This document shows positions 7,342 through 32,270 of a stretch of DNA of 64,000 nucleotides, piece after piece. How positions within the stretch are numbered: position 1 is the stretch's first letter; every line of letters starts with the position of its first letter. Made by a program: the position numbers and the translations under genes. Below the pieces are notes generated by a model, which had not been told where the DNA came from, made no database searches, and worked only from the letters and a program-made list of their open reading frames with translations. The DNA comes from Candidatus Omnitrophota bacterium. Its GTDB lineage: Bacteria > Omnitrophota > Gorgyraeia > Zapsychrales > JANLHA01. The stretch is from assembly GCA_963662715.1 (NCBI GenBank), contig OY759724.1:1626662-1690661 (forward strand). Reading direction: 5' to 3'.

Positions 7342-7387
7342 GAGAAAGTTTTTTGTCGTTTATCCTTTTAACGTAAGGAACAAAGGT

Positions 7388-7873: not shown

Positions 7874-8934
7874 AAACCGAAATAGTCCCGATTAATTCAG
7901 ATTTCCCCGAACTGGATAAGATCGCTTATTGCGCAAAGGTCATCCGTCACGGGGGATTGGTGATTTTTCCCACGGAAACCGTCTATGGAATCGCGGCTGA
8001 TTATAATAATCCCAAAGCGATGGGCCGGTTGCGGGACGTTAAAAAACGGGCGGAGAATAAGCCTTTCTCTATCCATATTGCTCAAAAAGGTCTTGTGTAT
8101 AATTATACATCCATGACCGACCCGAGACTTTATAAATTGATCGATCACTGTTGGCCCGGCCCTTTAACTGTCATTGTCCCTTCCCGGGAAGCGGATCAGA
8201 CTATAGGTATTCGGATGCCGCAGAATAATATCGCCTTGATGCTTGTGCAGGAATCTCAATGTACGGTTGCGGCTCCATCGGCCAATTTTTCCGGCCAGCC
8301 TCCCCCTTCGACCTGTCAGGAGGCCTTGCGTGATCTGGACGGGTTGGTGGACGTGGCTATCGACGGAGGTTCAGCCCAACTTGGACTCGCCTCCTCGGTG
8401 GTTGATTTTACTCAGGGAGATCCGAAAATCCTGCGCGCAGGGGTCATTACCCAGGAAGAGGTGGATGCGATCACTCAAAAGAAATCCATTCTTTTTGTCT
8501 GTACCGGCAATAGCTGCCGGTCGGTGATGGCAGAATATTTATTGAGAGATTTTTTGCGTGGGCGCAATGATGTGGAGATATTTTCTGCGGGGACGGGGGT
8601 TTTCCTGCATTCCTCGGCCAGCAAAGAGACGCTGCATGTCCTTAGCCAGGAAGGGATCGATGCTTCTCTGCATGTGTCTCAGCCCGTAACGAATATTTTA
8701 TTGAATAAGTCGGATTTGATCCTCGTCATGACGCGTTCTCACCGTCAGCAGATCCTGGAGCGTTTGCCGGTTGTGGAAAATCGCGTGTACTTGTTGCGGG
8801 AATTTCATGACGAGCCGCTGTCGACCCACTTGAACCTGGATATCCCTGACCCGATTGGCAAGCCGGCTGAGGCCTATGAAGAATGTCTTATCATGATTAA
8901 GGAAGCTATACAGAAATTGGTTCATTTGATTTGA
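7870..8934 (+). CDS. tsaC: L-threonylcarbamoyladenylate synthase (TsaC/Sua5/YwlC-type) fused to a C-terminal low-molecular-weight protein phosphatase domain
   Basis: N-terminus 'VIFPTETVYGIAADYNNPKAMGRLRDVKKR' is the YrdC/Sua5 fold. C-terminus 'ILFVCTGNSCRSVMAEYL' is an LMW-PTP CX5R P-loop with a downstream 'DPIG' Asp loop. 4-nt overlap with purE. Confidence 0.85.
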   Translation: MKTEIVPINSDFPELDKIAYCAKVIRHGGLVIFPTETVYGIAADYNNPKAMGRLRDVKKRAENKPFSIHIAQKGLVYNYTSMTDPRLYKLIDHCWPGPLTVIVPSREADQTIGIRMPQNNIALMLVQESQCTVAAPSANFSGQPPPSTCQEALRDLDGLVDVAIDGGSAQLGLASSVVDFTQGDPKILRAGVITQEEVDAITQKKSILFVCTGNSCRSVMAEYLLRDFLRGRNDVEIFSAGTGVFLHSSASKETLHVLSQEGIDASLHVSQPVTNILLNKSDLILVMTRSHRQQILERLPVVENRVYLLREFHDEPLSTHLNLDIPDPIGKPAEAYEECLIMIKEAIQKLVHLI

Positions 8935-8990
8935 TTGGTTCAGGAATTGCCCGGTCTTTAAACAATATAAATATAAAACAGGACAAAAGA

Positions 8991-18600: not shown

Positions 18601-19450
18601 AACCGTTCAGGATTTGGGCTGCATGGCCTCATATGACGGTCTAACCTGTTCGTACGATCAACGATTGATTGTGACCACTCCGACGAACGCGAATTGTCCT
18701 GAAGAAAAAGAATGTAATTATGATGTGTCCTGTACAACATGTACGACCGGAGACACCCTGGCCTGCGCTGACGTAAACGGCTGTCCCTACCAGCGTATCT
18801 GCGAAGACGGTTACTGGAGCAGCTGTCAGCAGGTTAATCCTCTTTGCACTCCGGGAGAGATTGTTGATTGTGAGCCCAATGCCGACGGGTTTATTTCCAA
18901 AAAGACCTGTAATGTCTGCGGGACAGCCTGGGGACCCTGCTGGTGTGACCCGCAGGAAACACAAAGCTGTACAACCTCCGCTTCCTGCCCCGGGATCGGC
19001 ACATGTTCCGGAGGAGGCTGGTCTCCTTGCGAGCAAAGCAACCCGACATGTATTCCCGGCTCGACCCATGACTGTACTTTGGGCGACGGAAACCCGGGGG
19101 TCGAAGATTGTAATTCCTGCGGAGACGGCTTTGGTACGTGCCGCTGCTTGGCCGGCGCGGTTTATTGTTATATCGAAGGGGTTCTGGGAACCCAGACATG
19201 TAATACGACGACGGGGTTGTATGAGGATTGTGTCTGTATCAGCGGATCAACCAAGCAATGTACCACGACTTCGGGATGTACGGCCGGGGTTATTTATTGT
19301 AACGACGGCACCGGGCTCTTTGACGGCGACTGTGAATTGCCGTATTCTGAATGTACTCCGGGAGAAACCAGGTCTTGTCTGAAATACTTTATCATCCCTG
19401 GGACGGAGACATGTATGTCCTGCGGGAACTGGAGTGGTGTGTGTGAGTAA
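15650..19450 (+). CDS. Giant secreted hyper-cysteine-rich tandem-repeat protein (1266 aa; ~18 'CC-x-Y...CG...YP[DE]T...NP-x-C' modules plus C-terminal EGF-like modules)
   Basis: N-terminal signal/TM 'FCAMVVCTVFLVLLSEYGAFSQ'. Iterated motifs include CCDYG, CCGYP, CCEYG, CCNYP and CCQYG. 'C[TI]PG[ES]' modules appear at the C-terminus. The RBS-like GGGAGATGAGAGAG precedes the ATG. Confidence 0.85.
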   Translation: MLSYRKIWRFCAMVVCTVFLVLLSEYGAFSQTWTDDDLATAQRPVKPIHIREMRRAIYNKRMLCGMSSPTWQEPNIIEKVTPIRAQHVEELRQAIRDVYDMPPSRTLPDGVILATDVPEESAIRADHIFEIRLSIEEVSCCGDGECNPPFEDLDNCPVDCGACTYSDWVILGCGVSPCDGNEIQRKKTAPEDGCQDLIECIAAYDTCCNYGAWEDYDCGGGECDPTAMRQIQQSATSVAGCEDRYRCLELESCCDYAGFVWQCGYDILYPDTQWLEVNIPDNSACEPEFGTIYEADDPISKANCCDYGAQSSSCGGEVEGVTYPDSTLITQRAAGNPNCEDDITITPNADDCCDYGPIETPPSCGATLRVDGVMTTFPDTTFLQFRTPTNPNCDHKIVQELAIEEDPTKYCCQYSGFQGDCGYDPVYPDTDWIEYNIAGVVDVSCPVEYRNHLPNADSCCCYESTSICGDGVTYPTSSMITSKTPTCNPSCSTEVTEDTFNEACCGYGPWQYDQCGYAGYYDDTYLVDYRSPTNPLCDPIFGDVCGPNHEDCCGYPEKDVVCGGTWEGVVYPETTCIYDAAKPANPNCPDKCGSIEEMCDYCCDYEITSSHCGDGVTIPVTTQVVTRTPNNPNCDVIVDEQIPDGCCGYPAGSSRICGYDGRPATTSVEVMEPTQDFDDCETIIQNEIENDPFCCDYAGFQASQCGYSGWYEAHTRLEVNEPNNAITGCDPLFQNVVPYEYECCEYGTATSTCGDGVSYPTSSWVTTQTSAAGCDAIEGEETNHQNCCNYPASPTTECGALGYPETYLVSYLESSTNPTCEIQIIGTPAYDEVCCQYGSLQQGCGDGVQFPLTDYVSWHEPGLVHVDCPVKVISQIENDDTCCGYPAEYTAVCGYSALGYPETTLVEIKEPTLAECPVKSRNPVPYDDTCCEYTTNYYCGYPSPLDIPDTNYVEVKEPGGGKSCPVEAVNETAYAEICCGYTTGTVQDLGCMASYDGLTCSYDQRLIVTTPTNANCPEEKECNYDVSCTTCTTGDTLACADVNGCPYQRICEDGYWSSCQQVNPLCTPGEIVDCEPNADGFISKKTCNVCGTAWGPCWCDPQETQSCTTSASCPGIGTCSGGGWSPCEQSNPTCIPGSTHDCTLGDGNPGVEDCNSCGDGFGTCRCLAGAVYCYIEGVLGTQTCNTTTGLYEDCVCISGSTKQCTTTSGCTAGVIYCNDGTGLFDGDCELPYSECTPGETRSCLKYFIIPGTETCMSCGNWSGVCE

Positions 19451-19549: not shown

Positions 19550-20167
19550 GTGTCTCAAGAACCAGAATCCCAGCTAAATCAGATTTATTCGGATCCGGAT
19601 GTTTTGCTTATGCTTGAGGTCCAGAAAGGCCACCAGGCCCCTTTTGAGAGCCTGATGCGTAAGTATTATAAACGGATTTATAATTTTATTTACCGTTTTG
19701 TCGGACATCGACAGCTGGCCGAAGATTTGACACAGGATGTTTTTATCCGTGTGTATAAATCGGCGGATTCTTACCATCCCAAAGCAAAATTTCAAACCTG
19801 GATTTATACTATTGCTAAGAATTTGAGTCTTAATGAATTAAGAAAAAAGAGCTCTCGAAACAGTATTTCTTTAGAACAAGAAATTCCGACTTCCCGTGGG
19901 GCCGTGCTGCCCCAGGTCGAAGACCCTCGTGCGAAGAGTCTCTGGGAATCCATGGCGCAGGAAGAAAAACAGTCTGTTGTCAGGGAGGCCATTCAGAGTC
20001 TTCCTGAGAATCAGAGGATGGCTGTTATTTTGCGGAGATACGAAGATCTTTCTTACGAACAGATTGCTCAGACACTCCAATGTTCCGTGCCTGCCGTTAA
20101 GTCTCTTTTGAATCGGGCTAAAGAAGGGCTGAAAGGGAAGCTCAGGAATGTTATGGGAGATTATTGA
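19550..20167 (+). CDS. RNA polymerase sigma-70 factor, ECF subfamily
   Basis: Region 2 'YKRIYNFIYRFVGHRQLAEDLTQDVFIRVYK' and region 4 'LPENQRMAVILRRYEDLSYEQIAQTLQCSVPAVKSLLNRAKEGL'. GTG start. Confidence 0.9.
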   Translation: MSQEPESQLNQIYSDPDVLLMLEVQKGHQAPFESLMRKYYKRIYNFIYRFVGHRQLAEDLTQDVFIRVYKSADSYHPKAKFQTWIYTIAKNLSLNELRKKSSRNSISLEQEIPTSRGAVLPQVEDPRAKSLWESMAQEEKQSVVREAIQSLPENQRMAVILRRYEDLSYEQIAQTLQCSVPAVKSLLNRAKEGLKGKLRNVMGDY

Positions 20168-20233
20168 CGCGAGACAAATAAATCGCAACTTTTCCGCTTT
20201 TTTTGTGTTAAATATATAGAAGAGGATTTTATT

Positions 20234-20722
20234 ATGAAATGTCATGAAATCAAAGAACTTCTCCCGGCCTACAGCAATTCTGATGTCTCTCCAGAAAAAG
20301 CTATGGAAATAGGAGAGCATTTAAAGGTCTGCGAGGATTGCCTGCAGGAATATAATCTTATTGTTAAGAGCTGGGAGTCTTTGGACGTCTGGCCGGATAT
20401 TGAGCCGGAAGAAGGATATGTTTCAAGGTTCTGGACGCGTTTGTCTGCAGAACAGACCTGGAGAGAACGGGTTATGAGCGGAATGAAGAACCTGCTTGCA
20501 AAAAGAGCTCTTGTCCCGGCCTATGCCGGAACGCTCGTTGCGGTCCTTGTTGCTTTCTTGTATTTTCAGGTCCCTTTATCAAAAAACCGGCCTCCTGAAA
20601 TGATCATTGAAGAGGATGTCGATTTTGTTGAATCTCTGGAATTGACAGAGCAAATGGATATATTGCAGGAGATGGATTGGTTAGAGGATTTGGATGTTAT
20701 CGAAAAACTTGATGCTGTTTAA
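20234..20722 (+). CDS. Anti-sigma factor, zf-HC2 (ChrR/RsrA-like zinc-binding) type with one TM helix
   Basis: 'MKCHEIKELLPAY...HLKVCEDC' is an H-x3-C-x2-C zinc motif. TM helix 'ALVPAYAGTLVAVLVAFLYF'. Acidic C-terminus 'EQMDILQEMDWLEDLDVIEKLD'. Confidence 0.85.
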   Translation: MKCHEIKELLPAYSNSDVSPEKAMEIGEHLKVCEDCLQEYNLIVKSWESLDVWPDIEPEEGYVSRFWTRLSAEQTWRERVMSGMKNLLAKRALVPAYAGTLVAVLVAFLYFQVPLSKNRPPEMIIEEDVDFVESLELTEQMDILQEMDWLEDLDVIEKLDAV

Positions 20723-21002
20723 TCAGCAAAACAATTTTGTGCTAAAAGGAAGGGCTATTTTTGTGCTGAGCCTCTGTGCTTTTATCTTTATGGGGGGCCG
20801 GAATGGAGATTGCGGGAAAGAACAACAGAAGGATTCTTTGAAAAAGAAAACACAAGATGAGTCTGTTGTCGAATATATGGATATTTTAGATATATTGGAA
20901 ATTCTGGATGAGCGGGACATTGATTTCTTTCAGGATGATTTTTTTAGTTATCAGGAATTCGAGGGAGAGAAGGATGGAAAGGACAAAACAAAAAAGAAGT
21001 AG
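20694..21002 (+). CDS. Small acidic protein with signal peptide-like N-terminus; shares an 'MDIL...L..D' motif with the anti-sigma C-terminus
   Basis: 'AIFVLSLCAFIFMGG' hydrophobic segment, then 'VVEYMDILDILEILDERDIDFFQDDFF' and a Lys-rich tail. It overlaps both neighbours by 29 nt in different frames. The true start is uncertain. Confidence 0.4.
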   Translation: MLSKNLMLFNQQNNFVLKGRAIFVLSLCAFIFMGGRNGDCGKEQQKDSLKKKTQDESVVEYMDILDILEILDERDIDFFQDDFFSYQEFEGEKDGKDKTKKK

Positions 21003-21531
21003 GTGTTTTTCGTGTGTTTTGTTTGTAATTCTGATTTGTTTTATCGGGCGTCCGGCGGCTGCTCAAACAACCGGGCAGGCCCGTGAAATCCGTGACGAAA
21101 AACGGTTGTCGGAAAAATTCGAAAGGTGGCAACAGCTCAGCGAAAAAGAGAAAGCCCTGTTGCGCCGGCGTTTTGAAAAATGGCAGGCGATGTCCCCTGC
21201 GCGGAAAGCAAGAATTCAGGAAAGGTTTAAACGGTTTAAATCCCTGCCTATAGAGAAACAGCAGGAGCTTCGGAAGAACTGGCGGCGCTTTATGAACATG
21301 ACCGAGGGGCAGAAAAGAGAAATCAATGCGCGTTATGCCCGATGGAAGAAAATGACTCCGGAAGAACGCAGAAGACTAAGAAACCGGTTTTACCGGTTTA
21401 TGCAGATGTCCCCGGAGGAACGCAGGCAGCTGCAGCAAAAAAGAGAGCGGTGGCAGTCTCTTTCTCCGGAAGAACGGCAGAGAATACGTCAAAGAATACT
21501 TGAAAAAAGAAGACAGGCCCAGGAAATGTAA
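20974..21531 (+). CDS. DUF3106-type periplasmic repeat protein ('SPEER' repeats) typical of ECF sigma / anti-sigma loci
   Basis: Signal peptide 'MERTKQKRSRCFSCVLFVILICFIGRPAAA'. At least 4 repeats '(M/L)(S/T)PEERxxLxxRxxRW/F'. Internal ATG at 20974. Confidence 0.75.
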   Translation: MERTKQKRSRCFSCVLFVILICFIGRPAAAQTTGQAREIRDEKRLSEKFERWQQLSEKEKALLRRRFEKWQAMSPARKARIQERFKRFKSLPIEKQQELRKNWRRFMNMTEGQKREINARYARWKKMTPEERRRLRNRFYRFMQMSPEERRQLQQKRERWQSLSPEERQRIRQRILEKRRQAQEM

Positions 21532-21540
21532 TCATCTTAA

Positions 21541-21600
21541 GGGATCAGCGCCCTTTTTTATAACTCAAATAGAACCAGGACGCTGATCCCTTTCATTTTT
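21541..21600 (+). terminator. Rho-independent terminator-like inverted repeat GGGATCAGCG ... CGCTGATCCC followed by TTTCATTTTT
   Basis: Perfect 10-bp arms at 21541-50 and 21581-90, a 30-nt loop, then a T-run. It ends the sigma / anti-sigma / DUF3106 block. Confidence 0.55.
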
Positions 21601-21751
21601 CTGAATTGTCGGCCTTTTTATTGTACCCTCCTTTTTAAATATCATCTTCCAATAATTTACAGCTTTTTAAAAATCCAAATAAGTTCTGGCCTCTTGTTGT
21701 CGTTCAGTTTTTTTCGCCCTCTTTTTCTTGCCTCTTGACAATGGTGTATTA

Positions 21752-21773
21752 CTGTATTACACTTGTAATACAG
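21752..21773. promoter_or_regulatory. Perfect palindrome CTGTATTACA-ct-TGTAATACAG (candidate GntR/YtrA operator) overlapping a TTGACA -35 box at 21735-21740
   Basis: Read directly. It has the GT-N-AC core typical of GntR operators. It sits 30 nt upstream of the GntR start and contains a further half-site copy 'gtattac' at 21745-21751. Confidence 0.55.
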
Positions 21774-21802: not shown

Positions 21803-22207
21803 ATGACAGCCAAAGCAAAATTTTATTTTAATATTTTAACAACTTCCGGAGTCCCGATCTACCGGCAGATCATTGATCAGGTGAAAACTCTTATTGCGGC
21901 CGGCCGGTTGTCGTCAGGGGAGTTCCTGCCTTCTGTTCGTCAGGTGGCGCAGGAGCTGGAAATAAATCCTATGACGGTTTCCAAAGCCTATTCTTTATTA
22001 GAGAAGGAAGGAGTTCTGGAGTTTGCCCGCGGGCAGGGCATGAGAGTGAAGGGAAAAACTATTCCTCAAAAAGATCTGAAACAGCGGGAAGAGGCGCTTA
22101 TTCCTTTATTAAAAGAGGTCATTATGCGGGCTTGTCAATTGTCCGTTCAGCCGGAAAAGGTTATCTTACTTATGGAACATTTGTGGAAGGAGCAGCGTCA
22201 TGAATAA
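21803..22207 (+). CDS. GntR family transcriptional regulator, short YtrA-like subfamily
   Basis: 'IYRQIIDQVKTLIAAGRLSSGEFLPSVRQVAQELEINPMTVSKAYSLLEKEGVLEFARGQGMRV' is a GntR wHTH. The short C-terminal domain is followed by an ABC ATPase, as in YtrA-type operons. Confidence 0.85.
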   Translation: MTAKAKFYFNILTTSGVPIYRQIIDQVKTLIAAGRLSSGEFLPSVRQVAQELEINPMTVSKAYSLLEKEGVLEFARGQGMRVKGKTIPQKDLKQREEALIPLLKEVIMRACQLSVQPEKVILLMEHLWKEQRHE

Positions 22208-23078
22208 TTTTGTGATAAACATGCAGGGCGTTACAAGGCGTTATCGATCTAAAACGGTTTTGCAAAATTTGTCTTTGCGCGTTCCCGAAGGGTCGGTGTT
22301 TGGCCTGTTGGGGAAAAACGGGGCGGGGAAGACGACCCTCATTAAATGTGTTTTGGGTTTATTGCATCCTCATGAGGGCCAGATTTCGGTCCTGGAAGAT
22401 CATCCCGGGGATTTCTCGAATCAAACTAAAGAAAAGATCGGCTATGTCCCTCAGTCAGACCGGATTTATCCCTGGTTAAATGTCAGGCAGCTTGTTGCTT
22501 ATACGGCTTCGTTTTATTTTCACTGGAATACAGGTTTGGTTGAACGGTTGCTGAAAGAGTGGGAGTTGGATGAAGAGGATAAAGTGGGTTTGCTGTCAGA
22601 AGGCCAGGCCCAAAAACTGGCCATCATCCTTGCCTTAGGACATGAGCCGAGTGTATTGATATTTGACGAACCCGTTGCCAGCCTGGATCCTGCCGCCCGC
22701 AGGAATTTCTTAAAGACCATTCTGGATATTGTCGCTGACCGGAAATGCACGATATTTTTCTCCACCCATATCACCTCAGACCTTGAACGGGTCGCCGACC
22801 GTGTCGCTTTGCTGAAAGACGGAAAAATTGATTTTTGCGGTGAGCTTGACGTGTTAAAAGAAGAAGTCAAAAGACTGCGGGTGGTGTCTTCTGTCCCGTT
22901 GTCCCGGGAATTCCAGCTTGACGGCCTTCTTCACTGTGAACTGTCAAAGTATGAGGCTATTTTGTCTGTGCGCGGCTTTCATCCGGATCTGAAAAACCAG
23001 ATAGAGAAAAAAATCGGAGCGAAAATAGAAGTCGAGGATCTGAATCTTGAAGAAATTTTTCTGGAGCTCCATTCATGA
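22200..23078 (+). CDS. ABC transporter ATP-binding protein
   Basis: Walker A 'GKNGAGKTTL', signature 'LSEGQAQKL', Walker B 'LIFDEP', H-loop 'THI'. Confidence 0.9.
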   Translation: MNNFVINMQGVTRRYRSKTVLQNLSLRVPEGSVFGLLGKNGAGKTTLIKCVLGLLHPHEGQISVLEDHPGDFSNQTKEKIGYVPQSDRIYPWLNVRQLVAYTASFYFHWNTGLVERLLKEWELDEEDKVGLLSEGQAQKLAIILALGHEPSVLIFDEPVASLDPAARRNFLKTILDIVADRKCTIFFSTHITSDLERVADRVALLKDGKIDFCGELDVLKEEVKRLRVVSSVPLSREFQLDGLLHCELSKYEAILSVRGFHPDLKNQIEKKIGAKIEVEDLNLEEIFLELHS

Positions 23079-24463
23079 GAAATAAATATTATCAGATTTT
23101 CAACCTTTATTATCAATACATCCCTTTCCGTATCTTGTCGGCGTGTTTAGTGGCCACAGCTTTGCTTTCAAGATTTTCCCTTAAGCAGAAATACTATTAT
23201 GTCGCCGATGATTTTTTCACCTTTTTTCTGGTTGTCAGTGTCTGGCTGGGTTTCACTTCCGGGGTGTTATTAAAGAGACAGATGGCGCATCCCCGGGCCG
23301 CACTGCTGCCGGATTACCGTATCCCCCATATCATTGTCCCTTATAGTTTTTTTGCCTTCTTTATCGCGGTTTACTGTTATTGGCTCAGCAGCCTTTACCC
23401 GCTTATTATCCTGGAGAAAGCAGCTGTGTGGTCGGTTTTTCTGTTAAGTGTTCTTATCATCAACCTGATTATCTGGGTCGGATATCTGTCCATTAGTTTG
23501 CTGGTCTATGTCTCGTATTTTCTTCTGCTCGTGATTTCCTGGCAGACGTTTAACCTGGTTATCCTCATTACCGAACAGGCGCATTGGCAGCTTGCCCTGG
23601 CTCTGGCGAGTGTGGCTTTGCTTCTGCTGCTCGCTTGGCGAATGACGGTCTTAAATGAGGACAAGTTTGAATACGGCTATATTATTTCCTGGCCGCATAA
23701 GGAATTCCTCCACAATCAAATCAAAGCCGGAGAACTTTATGTCCGGGCGATACATTTTATTAAAAGCCGGCTCGGGCTTAAGCCCCGCAGAGTTGCCGTT
23801 CCTCCTTATCCGAGAGAGGCGGCCCTTTGGCGGAGGGCGTACCATTGGCATTATTTGGATTTGGCTGAATTGAAAAGTATTTGGATTCTGCTTGTGGTTT
23901 TGACGCCGGTCTATGTTTACCGCATCCCTGGGATGTCTTTTTTTCATGACTTTTACAGGGATCCTTACAGTAATTTTTTGCTTTATGCCATTGCCCCTGT
24001 CCTGATCGTTTTATGCTCGAATTATCGTAACATGAGCACCTGGCCGCATGATCTTCTGAAACCGGTCCGAAAAAAAGACTTTATTAAAGAGCAGGGGGCG
24101 GGACTTTTGGCGGGGCTGGGGCTGTACTGGCTGTTGTTTGTGATGTACTTGGTCTTTATCCCGCATTGCGTGCTTCAACCCGCTGCCTTGTTGAGCAGCC
24201 GGTTCTGGGGATATTTGGCTTTGTCAGGAAGTTTTGCCTTCTTGACATTGTCCTGGGTCATTTTTATGAGCACTTATTCATCCCGGCCCTGGTTTGTCCT
24301 GGCTAACGGAAGCGTTCTTGTGGGGCTGGCGCAGTTGTTGTTTGTGGTGGCCGGGAAACAGCCTTTCATGATCAATATGTTGAATAGTGCTCTGTGTTGG
24401 GTAGGCATTTATTTATTTTTGAAATGGGGTTACCGGAAATGGTGTCAGGCTGAGACAGCCTAG
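23075..24463 (+). CDS. Polytopic integral membrane protein (putative permease partner of the ABC ATPase)
   Basis: 462 aa with >=10 hydrophobic helices. 4-nt overlap with the ATPase gene. No recognisable family motif. Confidence 0.6.
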   Translation: MRNKYYQIFNLYYQYIPFRILSACLVATALLSRFSLKQKYYYVADDFFTFFLVVSVWLGFTSGVLLKRQMAHPRAALLPDYRIPHIIVPYSFFAFFIAVYCYWLSSLYPLIILEKAAVWSVFLLSVLIINLIIWVGYLSISLLVYVSYFLLLVISWQTFNLVILITEQAHWQLALALASVALLLLLAWRMTVLNEDKFEYGYIISWPHKEFLHNQIKAGELYVRAIHFIKSRLGLKPRRVAVPPYPREAALWRRAYHWHYLDLAELKSIWILLVVLTPVYVYRIPGMSFFHDFYRDPYSNFLLYAIAPVLIVLCSNYRNMSTWPHDLLKPVRKKDFIKEQGAGLLAGLGLYWLLFVMYLVFIPHCVLQPAALLSSRFWGYLALSGSFAFLTLSWVIFMSTYSSRPWFVLANGSVLVGLAQLLFVVAGKQPFMINMLNSALCWVGIYLFLKWGYRKWCQAETA

Positions 24464-24474
24464 GAGGGTTTGAT

Positions 24475-25917
24475 ATGAAAGTCAAAATGATTTTACCCGC
24501 GTTGTCTGAAGCCAAGAGTATATACTGGCGGCCTTTGAAATATTCTTTGTTCCCGCCTTTGGGTTTAGCGACTTTAGCCGGTTTTCTTTCCGCTGAGGAT
24601 GATATCGAAATCCGGGATGAACATGTTGAAGATTTATTCCTGGATGACGATCCTGACCTCGTTGCGATCCAGGTTTATATTACAGCCGCCCACCGGGCTT
24701 ATGAAATAGCCGATCATTACTGCCGGAAAGGCGTTTACGTTGTTTTAGGCGGTTTACACGTAACCTCTCTGCCGCAGGAAGCCGCTCTTCATGCCGACAC
24801 GATTTTTTTAGGTCCGGGCGAAGATACCTGGCCGCAATTTTTGCATGATTTTAGGCATGCGCGTCCCCGCAAAATTTACTCATCAACCCATCGTTCCCTG
24901 ACCGGCATCCCGCCTTTGCGGCGGGATCTTATTAAACGGCATTTGTATCTGGTGCCTAATTCTTTGCTTGTGTCCCGGGGCTGCCCGCACAGATGTGATT
25001 TTTGTTATAAAGAATCTTTTTTCCAGGGGGGCAGATCTTTTTATACCCAGACGGTCGATGATGCGCTTCATGAGATCCGCCGTCTCCCGGGGAAGCATCT
25101 TTTTTTTCTTGATGACCATCTCTTCGCTGATGAACGCTTTGCCTTGTCGTTGTTTGACGGAATGAAAGGAATGAAACGGGTCTGGCAGGCTGCCGGGACA
25201 GTGGCTTCCGTATTAAGGCCTCGTTTAATTGAGAAAGCCGTTGATTGCGGATTGAAAAGCCTGTTTGTCGGGTTTGAAAGCGTTAGGTCGGATACCCTCG
25301 CGGCATACAATAAACAGCATAACAGCAGAAGCGATTATGATGATGCCATCAGAAAGCTGCATGATTTGGGTGTCATGATCAACGGGAGTTTTGTCTTTGG
25401 CTGGGATGAGGACGGCCCGGATGTTTTTGACCGGACGGTCGAATGGGCCATAAGTCACGGGATTGAAACAGCTACCTTTCATGTCCTGACGCCGTATCCC
25501 GGAACCGCGCTTTTTAAACGCTTATTATTTCAGAAACGTCTGCTAAAAAAGAATTGGGACCTGTATGATACCCGGCATGCGGTCTTTGCTCCGGCACAAA
25601 TGTCGGCTGAAGATTTGGAGAAAGGATATGGGAGGGCGTATCGTGATTTTTATAAGTGGGGATCAATCTTTCAGGGGGCGGGGAATCATGCCTCAGGAAA
25701 AGATGCTTTGCGGCACCTGGCTTATGCCGGGGCCTGGAAAAAGTGTGAGCCATTATGGAATTTTATTATCAAGATTCGGCAGATTCAGAAAATGCGTCCT
25801 TTCCTGGAAGCGGTCCTTTCCGGGGGGCGGCGGGAGGAAGGGCGGATTCTTCCCGCCGTAAAAGACAGGGGGGTGCTGCAAAAGGAACGGATGTCATTTA
25901 AAACCGCCGGACCGTGA
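24475..25917 (+). CDS. B12-binding domain / radical SAM protein
   Basis: The N-terminal B12-binding-like domain is followed by 'CPHRCDFCYK', a CxxxCxxC radical SAM cluster motif. Confidence 0.85.
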   Translation: MKVKMILPALSEAKSIYWRPLKYSLFPPLGLATLAGFLSAEDDIEIRDEHVEDLFLDDDPDLVAIQVYITAAHRAYEIADHYCRKGVYVVLGGLHVTSLPQEAALHADTIFLGPGEDTWPQFLHDFRHARPRKIYSSTHRSLTGIPPLRRDLIKRHLYLVPNSLLVSRGCPHRCDFCYKESFFQGGRSFYTQTVDDALHEIRRLPGKHLFFLDDHLFADERFALSLFDGMKGMKRVWQAAGTVASVLRPRLIEKAVDCGLKSLFVGFESVRSDTLAAYNKQHNSRSDYDDAIRKLHDLGVMINGSFVFGWDEDGPDVFDRTVEWAISHGIETATFHVLTPYPGTALFKRLLFQKRLLKKNWDLYDTRHAVFAPAQMSAEDLEKGYGRAYRDFYKWGSIFQGAGNHASGKDALRHLAYAGAWKKCEPLWNFIIKIRQIQKMRPFLEAVLSGGRREEGRILPAVKDRGVLQKERMSFKTAGP

Positions 25918-25985
25918 ATGTCCCAGCATATCCGTTGAGCGCTCAGGCGGGGTTCAGAACATCATAAAAGAAAGGAGGGAGGATT

Positions 25986-26195
25986 ATGACACCGGAAGCC
26001 ATCAGAAGTTTATGCAAAGCGGCATCTCTGGTTTCGGTTGTGGCAGGAGCATACGGAATGGTCTTGTGCGTGCCGTTTATTGCAAGCCCCCACGTGACAG
26101 TTATTGCGGCGGCCAGCCTGCCCTTTATTGCCGGAGCTGTTTTGATTGCCGGAGGATTGGTGAGCTACACGATGCTCATTCGCAAGGAAGCATGA
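25986..26195 (+). CDS. Small two-TM hydrophobic protein (69 aa)
   Basis: 'LVSVVAGAYGMVLCVPFIA...IAAASLPFIAGAVLIAGGLVSY'. Two hydrophobic helices. Confidence 0.45.
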   Translation: MTPEAIRSLCKAASLVSVVAGAYGMVLCVPFIASPHVTVIAAASLPFIAGAVLIAGGLVSYTMLIRKEA

Positions 26196-26207
26196 GTTTG
26201 ACCCTTA

Positions 26208-26221
26208 GGCGGCGCCGCCTA
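26208..26221. other. Perfect GC palindrome AGGCGGCGCCGCCT
   Basis: Read directly. 14-bp self-complementary element 13 nt after the small TM ORF stop. Confidence 0.3.
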
Positions 26222-26280
26222 TTATAAAAAGATGATATGCTTTTGCGATTGTGCCGCAGGCATAAAAAAGGACGCTCCTC

Positions 26281-27030
26281 ATGAGAAAGAGTCTTATCCC
26301 ATTGCTGCTTGTCGTAATGGTCTTTTATTCCTGTTCTTGCGAAGAAAGGCCTGGCAGAGAAGATCCTGTTGCTTTCCGAGATAACAAACTGACTTTCAAG
26401 CTGGAAAACGTTCCTCTAGCCGAGGAGCCTTTGGAAGAGACGGATTATGCAACAGTCATAAAGAACATTTCTTACGAATTGCTTGAGCCTCAAGACGGTC
26501 ATTTTATAACGGATGAGCAGATAGCCAAAGTTAAACTTGAAGCCAGCGGATTCAAAAGGAAAGAAATCATTTCTTCCCATAACCATCCTTTTATAAGTGC
26601 GCTGACATATTCATTCAATGATCATCGCCCGTTAATCCTCTCCCCGGATATGATATGGCTTTTGATTTGTCAGGGGTTCGGGGAACATGTTAATGCCAAC
26701 GCTGAAGAGCTAAGAGACAGATTTGTCGATCATCCCGGCCAAAAAACACTCGTTGTTAAAAGGCATGATTTTGTTAAAGGTCATGAGGCGAATCCCTGGC
26801 CCGAAGTTTTTCCGTTATTTTCAAAACAAATAAAGAAATACTCTAATAATGATTTGTATGACATCCTGGTTGCAAACTATTCTACAACCACGCAAGCCGA
26901 AAAAACCGCATATGAAATGACATTTATGTACACCAATAAATTTTATTTTGCCTATAGATTCGAAACCTGGTGCGGAATTCCGAGCATTACTTTAGAAGGG
27001 ACGAAAGAGGACTGGGAAAAGATTCTTTAA
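26281..27030 (+). CDS. Putative lipoprotein / secreted protein of unknown function
   Basis: Signal 'MRKSLIPLLLVVMVFYSCSC'. An open frame-2 stretch continues past the stop to 27224. Confidence 0.6.
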   Translation: MRKSLIPLLLVVMVFYSCSCEERPGREDPVAFRDNKLTFKLENVPLAEEPLEETDYATVIKNISYELLEPQDGHFITDEQIAKVKLEASGFKRKEIISSHNHPFISALTYSFNDHRPLILSPDMIWLLICQGFGEHVNANAEELRDRFVDHPGQKTLVVKRHDFVKGHEANPWPEVFPLFSKQIKKYSNNDLYDILVANYSTTTQAEKTAYEMTFMYTNKFYFAYRFETWCGIPSITLEGTKEDWEKIL

Positions 27031-27229
27031 AAGAAAGCTTGAGTTCGGGGATTTTCCGTCCGGCATATATATTGCACCCCTGGAATGGTGTTATTTGGGT
27101 GAGACTTTCGATATGAAATTAGTGGCGGGCTTTGTAGGCATGACCCAGGATAAAGATACCAAAGCCGTACGCCCGGAAATAAACTGGATCATATACGATG
27201 TTACTGATGTTTCGGAAAAATAGTGACCT

Positions 27230-28024
27230 ATGAAATCAAATTTGTCTCATAACGTATTGAAATTGACTCTTCTGTTTTCGGGCGTCTCTACTTTGGGCCT
27301 GTTTATAGCCATGGCGATACATGAATTGGGTCATATCATTGTTGTCCTTTATTACGGGGGGCGGGTGACAAATCTTCATTTGCAGCCGTTTTCCCGTTCT
27401 GTCGTATCGTATTCCGTCCCGGCATCAGCGTCACAGTTATGGATCGCCTCCGGGGGCATTGTTTTCAGCATGATCATGGGCGGACTCGCTTTTTTGCTCG
27501 CACGTAAAATACGGTCTCCATACGGGTTGCCGGTCATTATGACAGGAGTCGCGGCTTTCATCGGGAATGGTTTTTATTTTGTTTTTGGTGCAATCATGTA
27601 CGGCGGCTTCGGTGATCCGGCAAAGTTAATGGCTTCGGGGTGCCCGGCCTATGGCCTTGTGATTTGGGGCGGTGTCCTTTTTATTCTTGGCTGCCTAGCT
27701 TTCCTTGCGAATCTTCCTTTGCTCGGGATCGGTCCGGAAGATTCCTGGGGACGAAGATCTGTCATCTTTGCCGGAGGTATTGCGCCTTATTTGATATGCG
27801 TGATGGTTTATAACGCTGTTTTTGATGAGACGCGCATTCCGCATTATTTTACTTTTATTGTTGGAACTATTTTTATGCTGTTGGCCGGGGCTTTTATGAC
27901 CAGGTTTTTGTCTGAGCGTTTGAGATGGCTCCAAAGACCTGCTGTAAGAGTTTGTTGGAAGCATGCATGGTTTGCTGTATACTTAAGTGTGCTTGTGATT
28001 ACGATAGAGCTGGTTTCTTTTTAG
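27230..28024 (+). CDS. Membrane protein with intramembrane HExxH motif (putative M50/S2P-like or DUF3267-like zinc metalloprotease)
   Basis: 'LFIAMAIHELGHIIVVLYYGG' places HELGH inside a TM helix. 6-7 TM segments. Confidence 0.55.
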   Translation: MKSNLSHNVLKLTLLFSGVSTLGLFIAMAIHELGHIIVVLYYGGRVTNLHLQPFSRSVVSYSVPASASQLWIASGGIVFSMIMGGLAFLLARKIRSPYGLPVIMTGVAAFIGNGFYFVFGAIMYGGFGDPAKLMASGCPAYGLVIWGGVLFILGCLAFLANLPLLGIGPEDSWGRRSVIFAGGIAPYLICVMVYNAVFDETRIPHYFTFIVGTIFMLLAGAFMTRFLSERLRWLQRPAVRVCWKHAWFAVYLSVLVITIELVSF

Positions 28025-28106
28025 CGGAGCCTGCCGTAAAGCCGTCAAACTAAACGAAAGAAAACCGGATGACCGTGTTTATTTCATAATTTTTTAAAAG
28101 TGTTCT

Positions 28107-28817
28107 ATGCAGATTTTATTTTCATTTTTTCTGGCCGTATTGCCGGCTTTGCTTTTAGTCCGGTATTTTTACAAAGCTAATCCGGCCCCCAAAGCCCTGA
28201 TCATTAAGCTGTTTCTTCTGGGGATTATATATACTCTTCCGGTTTATATTTTAGAAGAGATTTTGGCCCGCTTTAATGTGTATACGGAAGGCTCTTTTAT
28301 CCTGTATTATTTTTTTGAAGCCTTTATCGTTGCCGGGCTGTGCGAAGAATACATCAAGTTAAGAGTCGTTAAGAAATACGGATATAATTCCCCGTATCTG
28401 CAGGGAGAAGGCGACGGGATCATCCTTACTGTTGTGGCCAGTATGGGTTTTGCCTGTATGGAAAATATTTTGTATGTTATCAATAATTCCTGGTATATGG
28501 CTTTAGCCCGGGGGTTTACGGCGGTTCCCATGCATGCGATTTGTTCCGGAGTCATGGGATATTATCTGGGGCTCGCCAAACGCGCCCGGATAGCCCAAGA
28601 ACCGCAGACAGAAAAATATCTTATTAATAAAGGATTATGGCAGGCCATTTTAATCCACGGGTTATATGACTTTTTCTTGTTCATTTCTCCTATCCTGGGT
28701 TCAGTTTTTGCGACATTCACCGTTCCCCTTATGCTTTGGTATTATTTTTCCTTGAAAAGAACAATTCATAATGCTGTAGAGGATAGACTGCGGTTTTTTA
28801 AGGAGGGACAGGCATGA
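28107..28817 (+). CDS. CPBP/PrsW-family intramembrane glutamic-type metalloprotease (CAAX-protease-like)
   Basis: Motif 1 'CEEYIKL' (EExxK), motif 2 'GFACMENIL' (FxxxE), motif 3 'IHGLYDFF' (HxxxD). Confidence 0.75.
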   Translation: MQILFSFFLAVLPALLLVRYFYKANPAPKALIIKLFLLGIIYTLPVYILEEILARFNVYTEGSFILYYFFEAFIVAGLCEEYIKLRVVKKYGYNSPYLQGEGDGIILTVVASMGFACMENILYVINNSWYMALARGFTAVPMHAICSGVMGYYLGLAKRARIAQEPQTEKYLINKGLWQAILIHGLYDFFLFISPILGSVFATFTVPLMLWYYFSLKRTIHNAVEDRLRFFKEGQA

Positions 28818-29260
28818 GTTTTATTTATGCTGTTTTTGCTTATCCCGCTGCGCAAATGGCGGCCTTTTTCTGGGGGGCAGAGCTTCAGTGGCTGAAAGGA
28901 GAGGAAATTCGGATATTGATCTCTCCGCAGCCTATTCAAGTCACAGCTTCCTGCAGCGGTTTTGGATTTTTTTCTTTATTTTATATTTATATTGTCTTTT
29001 ATGTGGTACGGTATTGTCAAAGATCCCGGATGTGGGCTGCGGTCCTGATTCCTTTGCCGGCCGTTTATTTAGCTACCGTTGTAACTAACGCAGCCAGGAT
29101 GATTTGCGCTTATCATATTGCCCGTGTCAGCGGGGCCTGGTTGCCGTCTTTTTTTCAGCCCATTATTCATATGGGGGTCGGGGTGGCTTTCTTTCTCGGT
29201 GTTTTTATCGTAAGCACTTTATTGTTGGAGAGAATATTGCCTTATGGAAGACAATCATAA
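28814..29260 (+). CDS. Exosortase/archaeosortase-family protein, minimal catalytic core (148 aa)
   Basis: 'IQVTASCSGFGFF' matches the exosortase catalytic 'aCSG' motif. 'VVTNAARMI' matches the N-x-x-R motif. An Arg lies upstream in 'GEEIRIL'. Its ATG overlaps the TGA stop of the upstream gene (ATGA). Confidence 0.65.
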   Translation: MSFIYAVFAYPAAQMAAFFWGAELQWLKGEEIRILISPQPIQVTASCSGFGFFSLFYIYIVFYVVRYCQRSRMWAAVLIPLPAVYLATVVTNAARMICAYHIARVSGAWLPSFFQPIIHMGVGVAFFLGVFIVSTLLLERILPYGRQS

Positions 29261-32200
29261 AATGACGATCCTGCCGGTCTCTGTGAAGAGCCGCATTCTT
29301 GTCTTTTGGGTTTTTATCCTGCCTCAATTTGTCCTTTTCCTTTTGAATGTTTTTTCGTTCTGGATTATCCGGGAGGACATGGCCGCTTCCCATCTTTACA
29401 AAGTCTTTACGATAGCCGGCTGTGAGATTTTTCTTCTGCTTATCATGTGCGTCCTGTGGATGTCCTGGAAGCGTGCGGGGCTAAATTCCATTCCCTGGAA
29501 ATGGAACTGGTTTTTTCTCCTGATGCATATGGCGTATCTCTGGTACGTGAGCTATGAGATTCCCGCCGTCATTCCTGCGGGAACCGAAGCCTGGATTCTT
29601 GACCGGGGCCAGGTTATTTTATCCCAGTATGCTTTCATGATGCCGGCTTTGTTTTATTCGGCCTTGCGCTTAGCGTGTTTTGAGACGCGTTTAACCCGGG
29701 GGGCGGATATCGGACGCAGCCTCCTGGTTGCGGTCGGCATGCCGATGCTCTGGTATACAGCTATGCTGGGGCTGTCAACCTTTTACCGCTGGACCTGGAT
29801 GTGGTTCCCGACGGCCATCGGAATGGTGTTCTTTGTCGGAAGCAGCGTCATCACACTCATAGCCCTTATCCGCCTAAGCGTTTTGATTTATAGCTGGTAT
29901 CAGGGCCGGGATGCCTGGACTCACAATACCGTTATTGCTCTGGTCGCTTTGGTTGGGCCTTTGGCCGGGTTGCTTTTAAACCGGAACATCCCTTTCCCGG
30001 CTGACTTTCAGTCAGAAATCATTTATGGGCTGGCCGTCGTTAACGGGCTTATCCTGCTTGTCCCTTCGATCTTTAGAATGAAATATCAGCGCGTACGGCT
30101 GTTTTTGCGTGCATGGGCGTATCCTTTTACCCTTTATTTCTTTCTCGTGTTTTTACCTTTTCTCCCTTTATCCCTGCTCGCCATTTGTGCCTTGGGATTG
30201 GGATTCCTTTTTTTGATCCCGGTGCTTTTGTTTTTACTTCATACGAAAATACTTATTGAAGATTATCAGTCCTGCGCGCAGCAAGGTAGCCGTATGACCG
30301 CTGTTGCCCTTATCTTGTCGGCATGCCTTGTTTTGCCCGGTGCTTTTGTCGCTGAGACGCTTTGCGATAAAACCGCCGTAGAGCAGGCTCTCGATTATGT
30401 CTACGCATCTGATTATGAACAACCTCAATGGTATCCCGGGTCTGCAAGAGCTGTTGAGCGGACTTTAATAAAAATGCGGCAGGCTAAAGACGGGGCCCAA
30501 TTGCCGTACCTTTCTGCGCTTTACAACCGGATTGTTTTTCACGGTATGGTTCTGCCTAATTCCAAAATGGAGTATATGTTCCGGCTTTTTACCGGAAAGT
30601 CTTTAAACGATGTTTATGAAAAATCGGCCGGCTGGCGCAGCCGTATCCGAGGGAGAGATGGTGCCATGTCCGCGGGCCGGCGCAGAAGGCCTGAACGGGA
30701 CCGGAATGTTGTTCTTTTTTCAACGACCAAGACCAGCCGGAATGAGGGGGTTTCAACCGTAACGAAAATGGTGTTTTATTTTATAAATATCGGTCATGAT
30801 AATGCGGCGGAATTTTTCAGGGAATGCACGCTTCCCCCGGGCGTTCTGATTACCGATTTTCGTTTGCAGCTTAATAACGAACTGGTGCCGGGGCAAATAT
30901 TCGAACAGAAAACGGCCACATGGGTTTATCATATGATCCGGGACTGGACCCGGCGGGATCCCGGCCTCATTGTCTATAAGTCTCCGCAAGTGTTTGAGCT
31001 CAGCATTTTTCCTTTTCGCACGAGAGAAACCCGCTATGCCGAAATTGAATTTACCTATCCGCGTGATGCGGCACCGGTCATCTATATCGGCAGAAAAGGG
31101 ATTGCTTTGCGTTCCCGGGATGAGGGCCCGCCCAGCCCGCCTGTCCCGTTAACGGGCCAGGACGCTTCAGGGAACAATTATTCGCTGGTTTTCCCCGAAA
31201 TGTTGGAGTCTCTGGCAAAGATTAAAAGAAAGCCTTATTTGCATTTTATTCTGGATTTTTCCCTGGGAGAGGATCCGTCCCAATATGCGCAACAGATGAT
31301 GGATGTTGCCGCTGAGTTCCCGGATATCCATAAGGGGAAAATCAGTGCGGCCAATTTTGAAGTTGAATCTTTGACCCGGGATTTTATAGATTTCAGAAAC
31401 AGCGATTTAATAAAACAACATCTGCAACAGGTCCGGCTCCCGTCCCGCGGGGCTCTGGAGCTTTCCAGAGTTTTTAAGCACGAATTGACGATGTATCAAT
31501 CCCGTCTTGAAAGCGAGGATTTTGCCTCATGGTCCGAGTATCCTGTCTTTGTTGTTTTATCGCAGAAAAAAGATAACGTCATATCCCCGGAAGACATGTC
31601 GTATTTTCAATTCCTGACTCCGGAAAATGACAGTTATTATATCAAAACGCCGGATCAGCCGGCGCAGAAACATCCGCTTTTCCGGGCGGTTCTAGACCCT
31701 TACCTGCCGGAAGATGTGGTTGTCTTCAGGAGAGGCCCTTATGTGTCATTCGCTCCCGGACCGAGATGGGAGAGATGGCAATGGCATGTTCTTATAAACC
31801 AGGGAAAGGGGAAGCAGCAGCCTTTGGAGGTTTATGATCCCAATCAAAAATATTTTGTCCCGATTTTATACGAAAGGATTCCCGGGGGCTCTTTTTACGG
31901 GCAAGCCCTGGGGCTGTACGTGAAGAATTATAAGGACATTCTGAACCCTTCTAAACTTAAGCGGTCGCTGCCGGCACTCGTGCAGCAGAGCAAGTCCTTG
32001 GGGGTTTTGATCCCGGCCACAGCTCATATTATTGTCGAACGCAGTTCCCAGTGGAAAACTCTTCAGTTGAGAGAATTTCAGCGGTTGCATAGTCAGCAGG
32101 GCCTGGAGTTTGAAGAGGACTTTGAAACACCTGCCCCGCCTTTCTGGCTGCTCGCGATAGCGTGCTTTTTGTGGCTCCGGAGCAGACGGGCGGGCGCAAA

Positions 32201-32270
32201 ACATCCCATGATACCCTTCCCGGTTAGCGATTGTTGTTCGTCCTCCACGAAGAAAGCTGAAAAAGAATAG
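29244..32270 (+). CDS. Large polytopic-membrane / VIT-like domain protein with C-terminal PEP-CTERM-like sorting element (putative exosortase target)
   Basis: 1008 aa. Residues ~1-370 hold >=10 TM helices. The soluble region carries 'FRLQLNNELVPGQIFEQKTATWVYHMIRDWTRRDPGLIVYKSPQVFELSIFPFRTRETRYAEIEFTYP'. The C-terminus is 'TPAPPFWLLAIACFLWLRSRRAGAK', a Pro-rich motif, TM helix and Arg cluster. Confidence 0.75.
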   Translation: MEDNHKMTILPVSVKSRILVFWVFILPQFVLFLLNVFSFWIIREDMAASHLYKVFTIAGCEIFLLLIMCVLWMSWKRAGLNSIPWKWNWFFLLMHMAYLWYVSYEIPAVIPAGTEAWILDRGQVILSQYAFMMPALFYSALRLACFETRLTRGADIGRSLLVAVGMPMLWYTAMLGLSTFYRWTWMWFPTAIGMVFFVGSSVITLIALIRLSVLIYSWYQGRDAWTHNTVIALVALVGPLAGLLLNRNIPFPADFQSEIIYGLAVVNGLILLVPSIFRMKYQRVRLFLRAWAYPFTLYFFLVFLPFLPLSLLAICALGLGFLFLIPVLLFLLHTKILIEDYQSCAQQGSRMTAVALILSACLVLPGAFVAETLCDKTAVEQALDYVYASDYEQPQWYPGSARAVERTLIKMRQAKDGAQLPYLSALYNRIVFHGMVLPNSKMEYMFRLFTGKSLNDVYEKSAGWRSRIRGRDGAMSAGRRRRPERDRNVVLFSTTKTSRNEGVSTVTKMVFYFINIGHDNAAEFFRECTLPPGVLITDFRLQLNNELVPGQIFEQKTATWVYHMIRDWTRRDPGLIVYKSPQVFELSIFPFRTRETRYAEIEFTYPRDAAPVIYIGRKGIALRSRDEGPPSPPVPLTGQDASGNNYSLVFPEMLESLAKIKRKPYLHFILDFSLGEDPSQYAQQMMDVAAEFPDIHKGKISAANFEVESLTRDFIDFRNSDLIKQHLQQVRLPSRGALELSRVFKHELTMYQSRLESEDFASWSEYPVFVVLSQKKDNVISPEDMSYFQFLTPENDSYYIKTPDQPAQKHPLFRAVLDPYLPEDVVVFRRGPYVSFAPGPRWERWQWHVLINQGKGKQQPLEVYDPNQKYFVPILYERIPGGSFYGQALGLYVKNYKDILNPSKLKRSLPALVQQSKSLGVLIPATAHIIVERSSQWKTLQLREFQRLHSQQGLEFEEDFETPAPPFWLLAIACFLWLRSRRAGAKHPMIPFPVSDCCSSSTKKAEKE

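Follow-up and report, generated by a model that had tools for sequence, protein, structure and literature searches.

The 64,000-nucleotide (nt) window analysed here, the whole stretch taken from contig OY759724.1 of a Candidatus Omnitrophota bacterium and the frame for all locus coordinates below, contains between positions 21803 and 27030 six open reading frames (ORFs) that encode a YtrA-type GntR repressor, an ATP-binding cassette (ABC) ATPase, a 462-amino-acid (aa) polytopic membrane protein (TM462), a B12-binding/radical S-adenosylmethionine (SAM) enzyme, a 69-aa hydrophobic protein (p69) and a product with a lipoprotein-like signal. An earlier note on this DNA had taken the six genes as one cluster and the enzyme as the partner of an exporter in the making of a modified, exported product. 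We favour, with a confidence somewhat better than even, a composite region instead, in which a self-repressed ABC exporter module and an independent radical SAM gene lie together without forming one pathway, and in which p69 is a membrane component tied to the permease and not a peptide precursor. Against the proposed pairing, the module is free of the enzyme in close relatives and the enzyme is free of the module in all 80 loci surveyed from other phyla; of the proposed cluster, only GntR-ABC-TM462 recurs, with p69 in the closer relatives.

A repressor-transporter module and its small membrane partner

Genomic contexts of TM462 relatives were recovered from 62% down to ~25% identity to the window protein (Table 1), and a metagenome scan with a 9-sequence TM462 alignment yielded four loci. 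Wherever upstream DNA was covered, the TM462 homologue is immediately preceded by genes for a short GntR regulator and an ABC ATPase (the GntR gene is cut in L093, and one partial contig holds ABC-TM only). The TM homologues of these loci measure ~460–496 aa, and the genes 3' of the module vary. The conserved unit is GntR-ABC-TM462, plus p69 in closer relatives.

Table 1. Loci (L numbers) with relatives of the module. Identity is that of the TM462 homologue to the window protein; TM, TM462 homologue; rSAM, radical SAM gene.
Locus	TM462 identity	Radical SAM gene	Gene order and neighbours
L081	62%	present	GntR-ABC-TM-rSAM-p69, M50-like, PrsW, XrtK, MSEP
L085/L086, L092	62%	absent	GntR-ABC-TM-p69, M50-like, PrsW, XrtK, MSEP
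L091	61%	absent	GntR-ABC-TM-p69, M50-like, PrsW, XrtK, MSEP
L084	45%	present (583 aa)	GntR-ABC-TM-rSAM, 712-nt gap, p69
L089	34%	present, after p63	TM-p63-hairpin-rSAM; contig begins at TM
L082/L083	34%	absent	GntR-ABC-TM, 276-aa and 79-aa proteins, DUF2334, methyltransferase, GT2
L093/L094	32%	absent	GntR-ABC-TM-p69; in L094 XrtK-MSEP directly next
L087/L088	~25%	absent	GntR-ABC-TM, then HEAT/Ank protein
L090	~25%	absent	GntR-ABC-TM, then S49 peptidase

All six ORFs of the earlier note were recovered on the + strand, with the same coordinates and spacings as it had given (Table 2). The GntR and ABC genes overlap by 8 nt and the ABC and TM462 genes by 4 nt, TM462 and the enzyme gene are separated by an 11-nt gap that contains GGAGGG as a ribosome-binding site (RBS), and the intergenic gaps downstream of the enzyme gene are 68 and 85 nt long. 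Since every long ORF across the 64-kb window lies on the + strand, the co-directionality of the genes at this locus is uninformative.

Table 2. Features of the locus, in window coordinates.
Feature	Position	Strand	Remarks
Terminator-like hairpin and U-rich tract	21539..21593	+	-26.4 kcal/mol
Sigma-70-type promoter TTGACA-17-TACACT	21735..21763	+	10/12 matches
Putative operator palindrome TGTATTAC-ACTT-GTAATACA	21753..21772	no strand	overlaps -10 box
YtrA-type GntR repressor, 134 aa	21803-22207	+	PF00392, 59.4 bits, residues 20-82
ABC ATPase (nucleotide-binding domain), 292 aa	22200-23078	+	PF00005, 97 bits; Walker A, signature, Walker B
TM462, 462-aa 12-helix (6+6) membrane protein	23075-24463	+	confident model; no Pfam match
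B12-binding/radical SAM enzyme, 480 aa	24475-25917	+	PF02310 and PF04055 above cut-offs
p69, 69-aa hydrophobic two-helix membrane protein	25986-26195	+	own RBS AAAGGAGG
249-aa ORF, lipoprotein-like signal MRKSLIPLLLVVMVFYSC	26281-27030	+	N-terminal piece of DUF4419 remnant
DUF4419 pseudogene remnant	26281..27223	+	two out-of-frame pieces, internal deletion
M50-like protease, PrsW, XrtK-like exosortase, MSEP-CTERM	27230..32270	+	downstream neighbours, outside the module proper

The YtrA-type assignment of the regulator holds, this being a short protein with a winged helix-turn-helix (above the PF00392 cut-off of 27 bits), whose gene directly precedes those of an ABC ATPase and a polytopic partner and has a palindrome at its own promoter. 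The helix-turn-helix domain ends at residue 82, and the remaining tail of ~52 aa has no room for a classical ligand domain. Among NCBIfam models it matches PmtR, its second-best model, at 59.8 bits (cut-off 200) and Rv1152 at 40 bits, and across related modules the regulators are 57–78% identical. Upstream, the hairpin at 21539–21593 is unusually stable (z = -7.2, with 0 of 200 shuffles folding as well); being terminator-like, it appears to close the preceding DUF3106 gene and to mark the start of a new transcription unit. The putative operator in that unit is a perfect 8-4-8 palindrome over the −10 box of the GntR promoter, preceded by an extra direct half-site, GTGTATTAC. The exact palindromic site occurs once in the window, compared to 0.08 occurrences expected by chance, and the motif GTGTATTA-N4-6-TAATACAC is kept in eight out of eight loci compared, among them the distant L087 and L090. 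Moreover, TTGACA and the −10 region are kept in the Omnitrophota-type loci despite flanks that have diverged beyond alignment. The pattern of promoter and palindrome fits an autoregulated YtrA-type repressor, whose binding to the palindrome we infer from sequence.

The ATPase has a Walker A motif (GKNGAGKT), a signature at residue 132 and a Walker B motif (FDEP). The signature is the LSEGQ variant that had been pointed out before, as had the CPHRCDFC motif of the enzyme, and both were confirmed in the sequences. In NCBIfam it is matched best by PmtA, with 179 bits over its full length, short of the cut-off of 350. Neither TM462 nor any of 10 distant relatives has a match in Pfam or NCBIfam, the ABC-2 permease families included. 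A word-indexed search found 9 TM462 clusters among 5.8 billion proteins, the named ones all from Candidatus Omnitrophota, and 159 representatives among 1.84 billion, nearly all of them 440–500 aa long, came up in a full profile search. An AlphaFold2 model built from a 73-sequence alignment (predicted local distance difference test score, pLDDT, 92.5; predicted template modelling score, pTM, 0.88) has 6+6 helices joined by a linker, a model from 9 sequences only (pLDDT 60) having been too poor for use. In Foldseek, the best PDB matches to this model were to Rv1217c (8k1o/8k1p; probability 1.0, TM-score 0.46–0.54, E = 0.03), followed by NosY and then ABCG5/8, with E-values of 0.03 or worse, and all are type V. 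TM462 is thus modelled as a fused permease with two transmembrane domains (TMDs) of the type V ABC class, an identity that is only probable because the E-values are weak and sequence-family membership is absent. The earlier suggestion of an exporter agrees with the probable exporter-type (type V) fold of the partner in the predicted model. Rv1217c, with its two TMDs fused, serves as membrane subunit in a type V exporter and works with a homodimer of one nucleotide-binding domain (NBD; PMC11406275); the gene arithmetic here is the same as in that system, with one NBD gene and one probable fused permease.

In Omnitrophota-type loci p69 is the next gene after the permease or is separated from it by the radical SAM gene. 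It is 70–91% identical whether or not the latter is present, even where the permease is only 32% identical, and p69 is therefore not a dedicated precursor, the role for which it had been put forward as a candidate. Its family is small, with only 6 clusters in 5.8 billion proteins. A second small hydrophobic family, of 67–79 aa (MDYIFHVCV...) and unrelated to p69, occurs close to the module in two distant loci, L084 (10034–10237) and L082 (10241–10480).

The radical SAM gene, its family and its neighbours elsewhere

In the window, L081 and L084 the enzyme gene has TM462 on one side and p69 on the other, and in L089 it comes after the p69-like gene p63, behind a GC-rich hairpin. It is absent from L085/L086, L091 and L092, which are four independent assemblies otherwise collinear with the window from a cysteine-rich protein to HflX, and likewise from L093/L094, L082/L083, L087/L088 and L090. 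Clean loss is indicated by the TM462 tree, where the enzyme-less clade of L085 and L091 is nested inside enzyme-bearing lineages. No enzyme remnant was found in the TM462-p69 spacer of L085 and L091, where only the p69 RBS region aligns and scores stay within the shuffled range. A neighbour-joining tree places the window, L081 and L084 enzymes in one group and the window gene has a native-like GC content at third codon positions (GC3, 0.50), which together argue that the enzyme was inherited at this site and counter a recent horizontal acquisition. The partial L089 copy is 74% identical to Anaerolineae and 69% to the window enzyme, an affinity that would reflect either a second insertion or unequal rates. 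At its C-terminus the L084 enzyme (7210–8961, 583 aa) is extended by ~100 aa that include two or three hydrophobic helices. This tail, found in no other of the best 120 homologues, could be a genuine membrane anchor or else an artefact of fusion.

Both domains of the enzyme score above their Pfam cut-offs (PF02310, 44 bits against 32.1; PF04055, 51 bits against 29.5), and beyond these B12-binding and Radical_SAM domains there is only a weak match to DUF4070. CPHRCDFC, at residues 170–177, is invariant in the family, in which no cysteines other than the three of CxxxCxxC are invariant. A homologue search returned at least 8000 matches, the best 120 of which are all 65–71% identical; species-representative genomes contain 549 relatives, and the best 80 of these loci, at 62–70% identity, come from Chloroflexota, Acidobacteriota, filamentous Cyanobacteria, Armatimonadota and others. 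Across phyla (83 sequences), 224 of the 480 positions (~47%) are conserved to at least 95%. No curated model claims the family; HpnR (73.5 bits, cut-off 650), HpnJ (71.2, cut-off 578) and BchE (65.9, cut-off 481), the best-scoring named models, match the core only. The literature yielded no paper characterising it, and in databases it stands under generic names only. Its sequence places the enzyme in a very large orphan family of class-B-type radical SAM proteins that is highly conserved.

The only solved relatives by sequence are AprD4, which is matched over the core only (E = 1e-8 to 2e-10), and one unnamed radical SAM protein. AprD4 has a B12-binding-type domain but is not known to use cobalamin and, as it is the closest solved relative, the cobalamin cofactor of the window enzyme is not assured. 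A classification by SPASM/twitch domains, as suggested in the earlier note, found no footing: Pfam and NCBIfam scans gave no match to SPASM/twitch, to RRE or to other families of the type associated with ribosomally synthesised peptides that are modified post-translationally (RiPPs). An identity as Mss/Tes lipid synthase was likewise unsupported, with no tetraether-synthase structure among the PDB matches and no match in the lipid radical SAM literature; moreover, Mss homologues are reported to be absent from Acidobacteria (PMC13159169), where the enzyme family is abundant.

We surveyed the neighbours of the enzyme in the best 80 of the 549 loci, all from other phyla. Homologues of GntR, ABC, TM462 or p69 stood beside it in 0 of the 80, and BLAST clustering combined with Pfam revealed no conserved partner of the enzyme in these loci, none occurring in more than 20 of them and none crossing phyla. 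The neighbours vary from clade to clade. In ~20 Chloroflexota loci, mostly of Anaerolineae, a polytopic sensor kinase and a LuxR-type regulator are divergent to the enzyme gene; in Blastocatellia a STAND-type regulator lies 5' and uppS, for UppS, 3' of it; and in some Acidobacteriota it has orphan MacB-type permeases, UPF0047 or DUF4153 beside it, with no ABC ATPase found next to the MacB-type permeases there.

As we picture the composite region, the YtrA-type repressor would bind the palindrome over its own promoter and so control an operon whose products are one ABC ATPase, presumably acting as an NBD homodimer, the fused 12-helix type V permease and, in this lineage, p69. By analogy with MbrRAB, ClnRAB and PmtR-Pmt, the module would most likely expel or sense membrane-active or hydrophobic compounds, and derepression would follow when the transporter is engaged. 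The enzyme gene would have been inherited at the locus in one Omnitrophota sub-lineage, where it is probably co-transcribed, and cleanly lost in close relatives, and its family would work independently of the module in other phyla. Its position beside an exporter here would then be mostly a product of lineage synteny, and it is improbable that the locus encodes a pathway in which a product is modified and exported.

Rival readings and the surrounding genes

Several observations weigh against setting the enzyme apart from the module. In the window its gene begins 11 nt past the permease gene, with an RBS and no hairpin in between, which puts it almost certainly under the same repressor, and this spacing makes co-transcription with the permease in the source genome probable. 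At least three lineages, with permeases that share just 45–62% identity, have retained the enzyme at the locus, as has L089, and such persistence might exceed that of a purely accidental neighbour. Furthermore, members of the family in Acidobacteriota and Chloroflexota often abut membrane proteins (MacB-type at 9 loci, DUF4153 at 5), which leaves room for a membrane-related role of the enzyme, possibly one that intersects with the exporter. The earlier note had itself named what would speak against its pairing, namely independent transcription of the enzyme gene and a family at home in unrelated contexts: the second was found, in that the family is widespread in such contexts, whereas the 11-nt gap without a hairpin goes against the first. 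An Rfam scan of the window at gathering thresholds returned no RNA family, hence no cobalamin riboswitch.

A lineage-specific coupling, possible but on balance unlikely in our judgement, would draw on these same facts. The enzyme would modify, for example by methylation, a membrane lipid or a hydrophobic envelope component from within the same stress-inducible operon, and the transporter with p69 would flip, extract or sense that component. The 11-nt spacing with RBS recurs in L081 and becomes 39 nt in L084; the grouping of the three enzymes suggests vertical inheritance at the site; and in L089, despite a different gene order, the enzyme still lies beside TM-p69. The tight same-strand neighbours of the family in other phyla are often membrane proteins or permeases, and the divergent sensor kinase and LuxR-type regulator of the ~20 Chloroflexota loci, UppS in Blastocatellia, the hydrophobic extension of the L084 enzyme and the lipid handling common among type V exporters (PMC11406275) all lean the same way. 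What lowers its probability is that the module, p69 included, persists unchanged without the enzyme in L085/L086, L091, L092, L093/L094 and L082/L083, and that the family is unassociated with GntR-ABC-2 modules in the 80 loci from other phyla. The L084 tail, moreover, is unique among the best 120 matches, in L084 the enzyme gene and p69 lie on either side of a 712-nt structured gap, a GC-rich hairpin stands between p63 and the enzyme gene in L089, and synteny is region-wide, so that retention of position may be simple ancestry. A broader version, which we regard as speculative and improbable, is that the enzyme family as a whole modifies a membrane or envelope component and in Omnitrophota has been wired into a YtrA-type, transporter-coupled stress switch, in which it would be co-induced with a lipid-handling type V exporter.

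The genes downstream suggest another reading. MSEP-CTERM (1008 aa) scores 378 bits, above its cut-off of 150; the XrtK-like exosortase, at 38 bits, stays below its cut-off of 55; and the M50-like protease carries HExxH. The exosortase K/MSEP-CTERM pair has been described for Bacteroidota, and here it occurs in an Omnitrophota-type genome. The M50-like, PrsW, XrtK and MSEP genes adjoin the module in the window and in L081, L085, L091 and L092, and together with GntR-ABC-TM462-p69 they could form an envelope super-cluster that sorts or processes a surface protein, the enzyme being incidental. We consider this quite improbable. In its favour are the adjacency of module and XrtK-MSEP in these loci (L085 together with L086), the L094 arrangement, where p69 is directly followed by XrtK and MSEP even though the permease is 32% and MSEP 37% identical, and the score of MSEP-CTERM above its curated cut-off. 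Nevertheless, in L082/L083 the module is followed by unrelated DUF2334, methyltransferase and GT2 genes, and the distant L087/L088 and L090 carry HEAT/Ank or S49 peptidase genes instead; the operator is single in the window, before GntR; a DUF4419 pseudogene breaks the run there; and genome-wide synteny of the lineage could account for the adjacency.

That pseudogene is what had been read as an intact lipoprotein gene. The lipoprotein-like signal is present, and the 249-aa ORF matches only positions 1–146 of the 303-position DUF4419 profile, while positions 249–303 are found in another frame at ~26980–27223 and the middle part is missing, which marks it as a deleted, frameshifted remnant. Its GC3, 0.41, is the lowest of the region, and it is absent from the syntenic L081, L085 and L091. 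Because of this absence, the remnant is likely a decaying foreign insertion.

Finally, a RiPP-like pathway, in which p69 or an unnoticed short ORF would be modified by the enzyme and exported by the ABC transporter, has in its favour a gene order like that of small RiPP clusters and the proteases downstream, but it comes close to refuted, since p69 is a two-helix membrane protein kept at 70–91% identity in enzyme-free loci, no RiPP-type family was matched (no SPASM/twitch, no RRE, and the ApyD model scoring 53 bits where 750 is the cut-off), hundreds of genomes carry the enzyme family and no such peptide or transporter, and the 68- and 85-nt intergenic gaps hold no conserved short ORF.

The region has further features upstream. 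A cysteine-rich, secreted-looking protein of 1266 aa (window 15650–19450), with many CC.Y...C repeats and no Pfam match, is 76–79% identical in L081, L085 and L092 and always lies just 5' of the GntR module. Between this gene and the GntR gene in the window, an extracytoplasmic function (ECF) sigma factor, a zf-HC2 anti-sigma factor and a DUF3106 protein are encoded at 19550–21531. This cassette is present in the window and L084 and absent from the otherwise collinear L081 and L085, and its patchy presence makes it a second indel of the region. Genuine-looking ORFs of at least 150 aa are all on the + strand from position 1 to 64000, an unusually long co-oriented stretch; GC skew is positive in each 2-kb bin of the window, and the cumulative skew climbs throughout.

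Implications and comparison with known systems

The composite reading implies that the locus should not be classed as a biosynthetic gene cluster. It also implies that YtrA-type repressor/ABC modules, studied mainly in Bacillota, extend into Omnitrophota, with an unclassified fused permease family, a deeply conserved putative operator and a lineage-specific small membrane partner as new elements, and it offers a ready test case outside Gram-positives for the model in which a transporter controls its own repressor. The enzyme family, for its part, is among the more conspicuous orphan cobalamin-type radical SAM families and would be a worthwhile biochemical target; its arrangement in Omnitrophota, suggestive of envelope-stress-type control, is one of the few regulatory hints to its role. 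A 2026 preprint on Omnitrophota genomes does not mention the locus.

Among known systems, the module most resembles the extruder-repressor modules of Bacillota, such as MbrR-MbrAB of Streptococcus salivarius, YtrA-YtrB and ClnRAB, with which it shares a short GntR gene followed by genes for an ABC ATPase and a membrane partner, a palindrome at its own promoter and a short GntR tail. When the pump is engaged in MbrR-MbrAB and its Bacillota relatives, the repressor is sequestered by the ATPase (bioRxiv 10.64898/2026.02.18.706565). The module described here differs from these in being Omnitrophota-type, in its fused 12-helix partner without a Pfam family, in the conserved p69 and in the enzyme embedded in some lineages. 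Staphylococcus PmtR-PmtABCD (NF047563, NF047565) provides, with PmtA, the best named model for the ATPase, which is matched including the C-terminal domain. Pmt, whose cargo is small hydrophobic peptides, the phenol-soluble modulins, is a type V exporter made of two ATPases and two 6-TM permeases, whereas here there are one ATPase and one fused permease; the scores also fall short of Pmt membership, with 179 bits for PmtA (cut-off 350) and 59.8 bits for PmtR (cut-off 200). Rv1217c-Rv1218c of Mycobacterium tuberculosis (8K1M–8K1P; PMC11406275) is alike in having one NBD gene and one polypeptide with two non-identical TMDs, but Rv1217c is longer, shares ~12% sequence identity with TM462 at a Foldseek E-value of 0.03 and a TM-score of ~0.5, and has an unrelated regulator and context.

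Features that the enzyme has in common with HpnR, HpnJ, BchE and AprD4 are a B12-binding-type domain at the N-terminus, a CxxxCxxC core and a C-terminal region weakly resembling DUF4070. Its matches to the HpnR, HpnJ and BchE models are partial (66–74 bits, against cut-offs of 480–650), and the window's family is distinct from these and much more tightly conserved. As for the downstream genes, they parallel the exosortase K/MSEP-CTERM system (TIGR04287, TIGR04286) in that a small exosortase-like protein is followed by an MSEP-CTERM protein of ~1000 aa, and differ from it in that the exosortase is under the XrtK cut-off and that PrsW and an M50-like protease are interposed.

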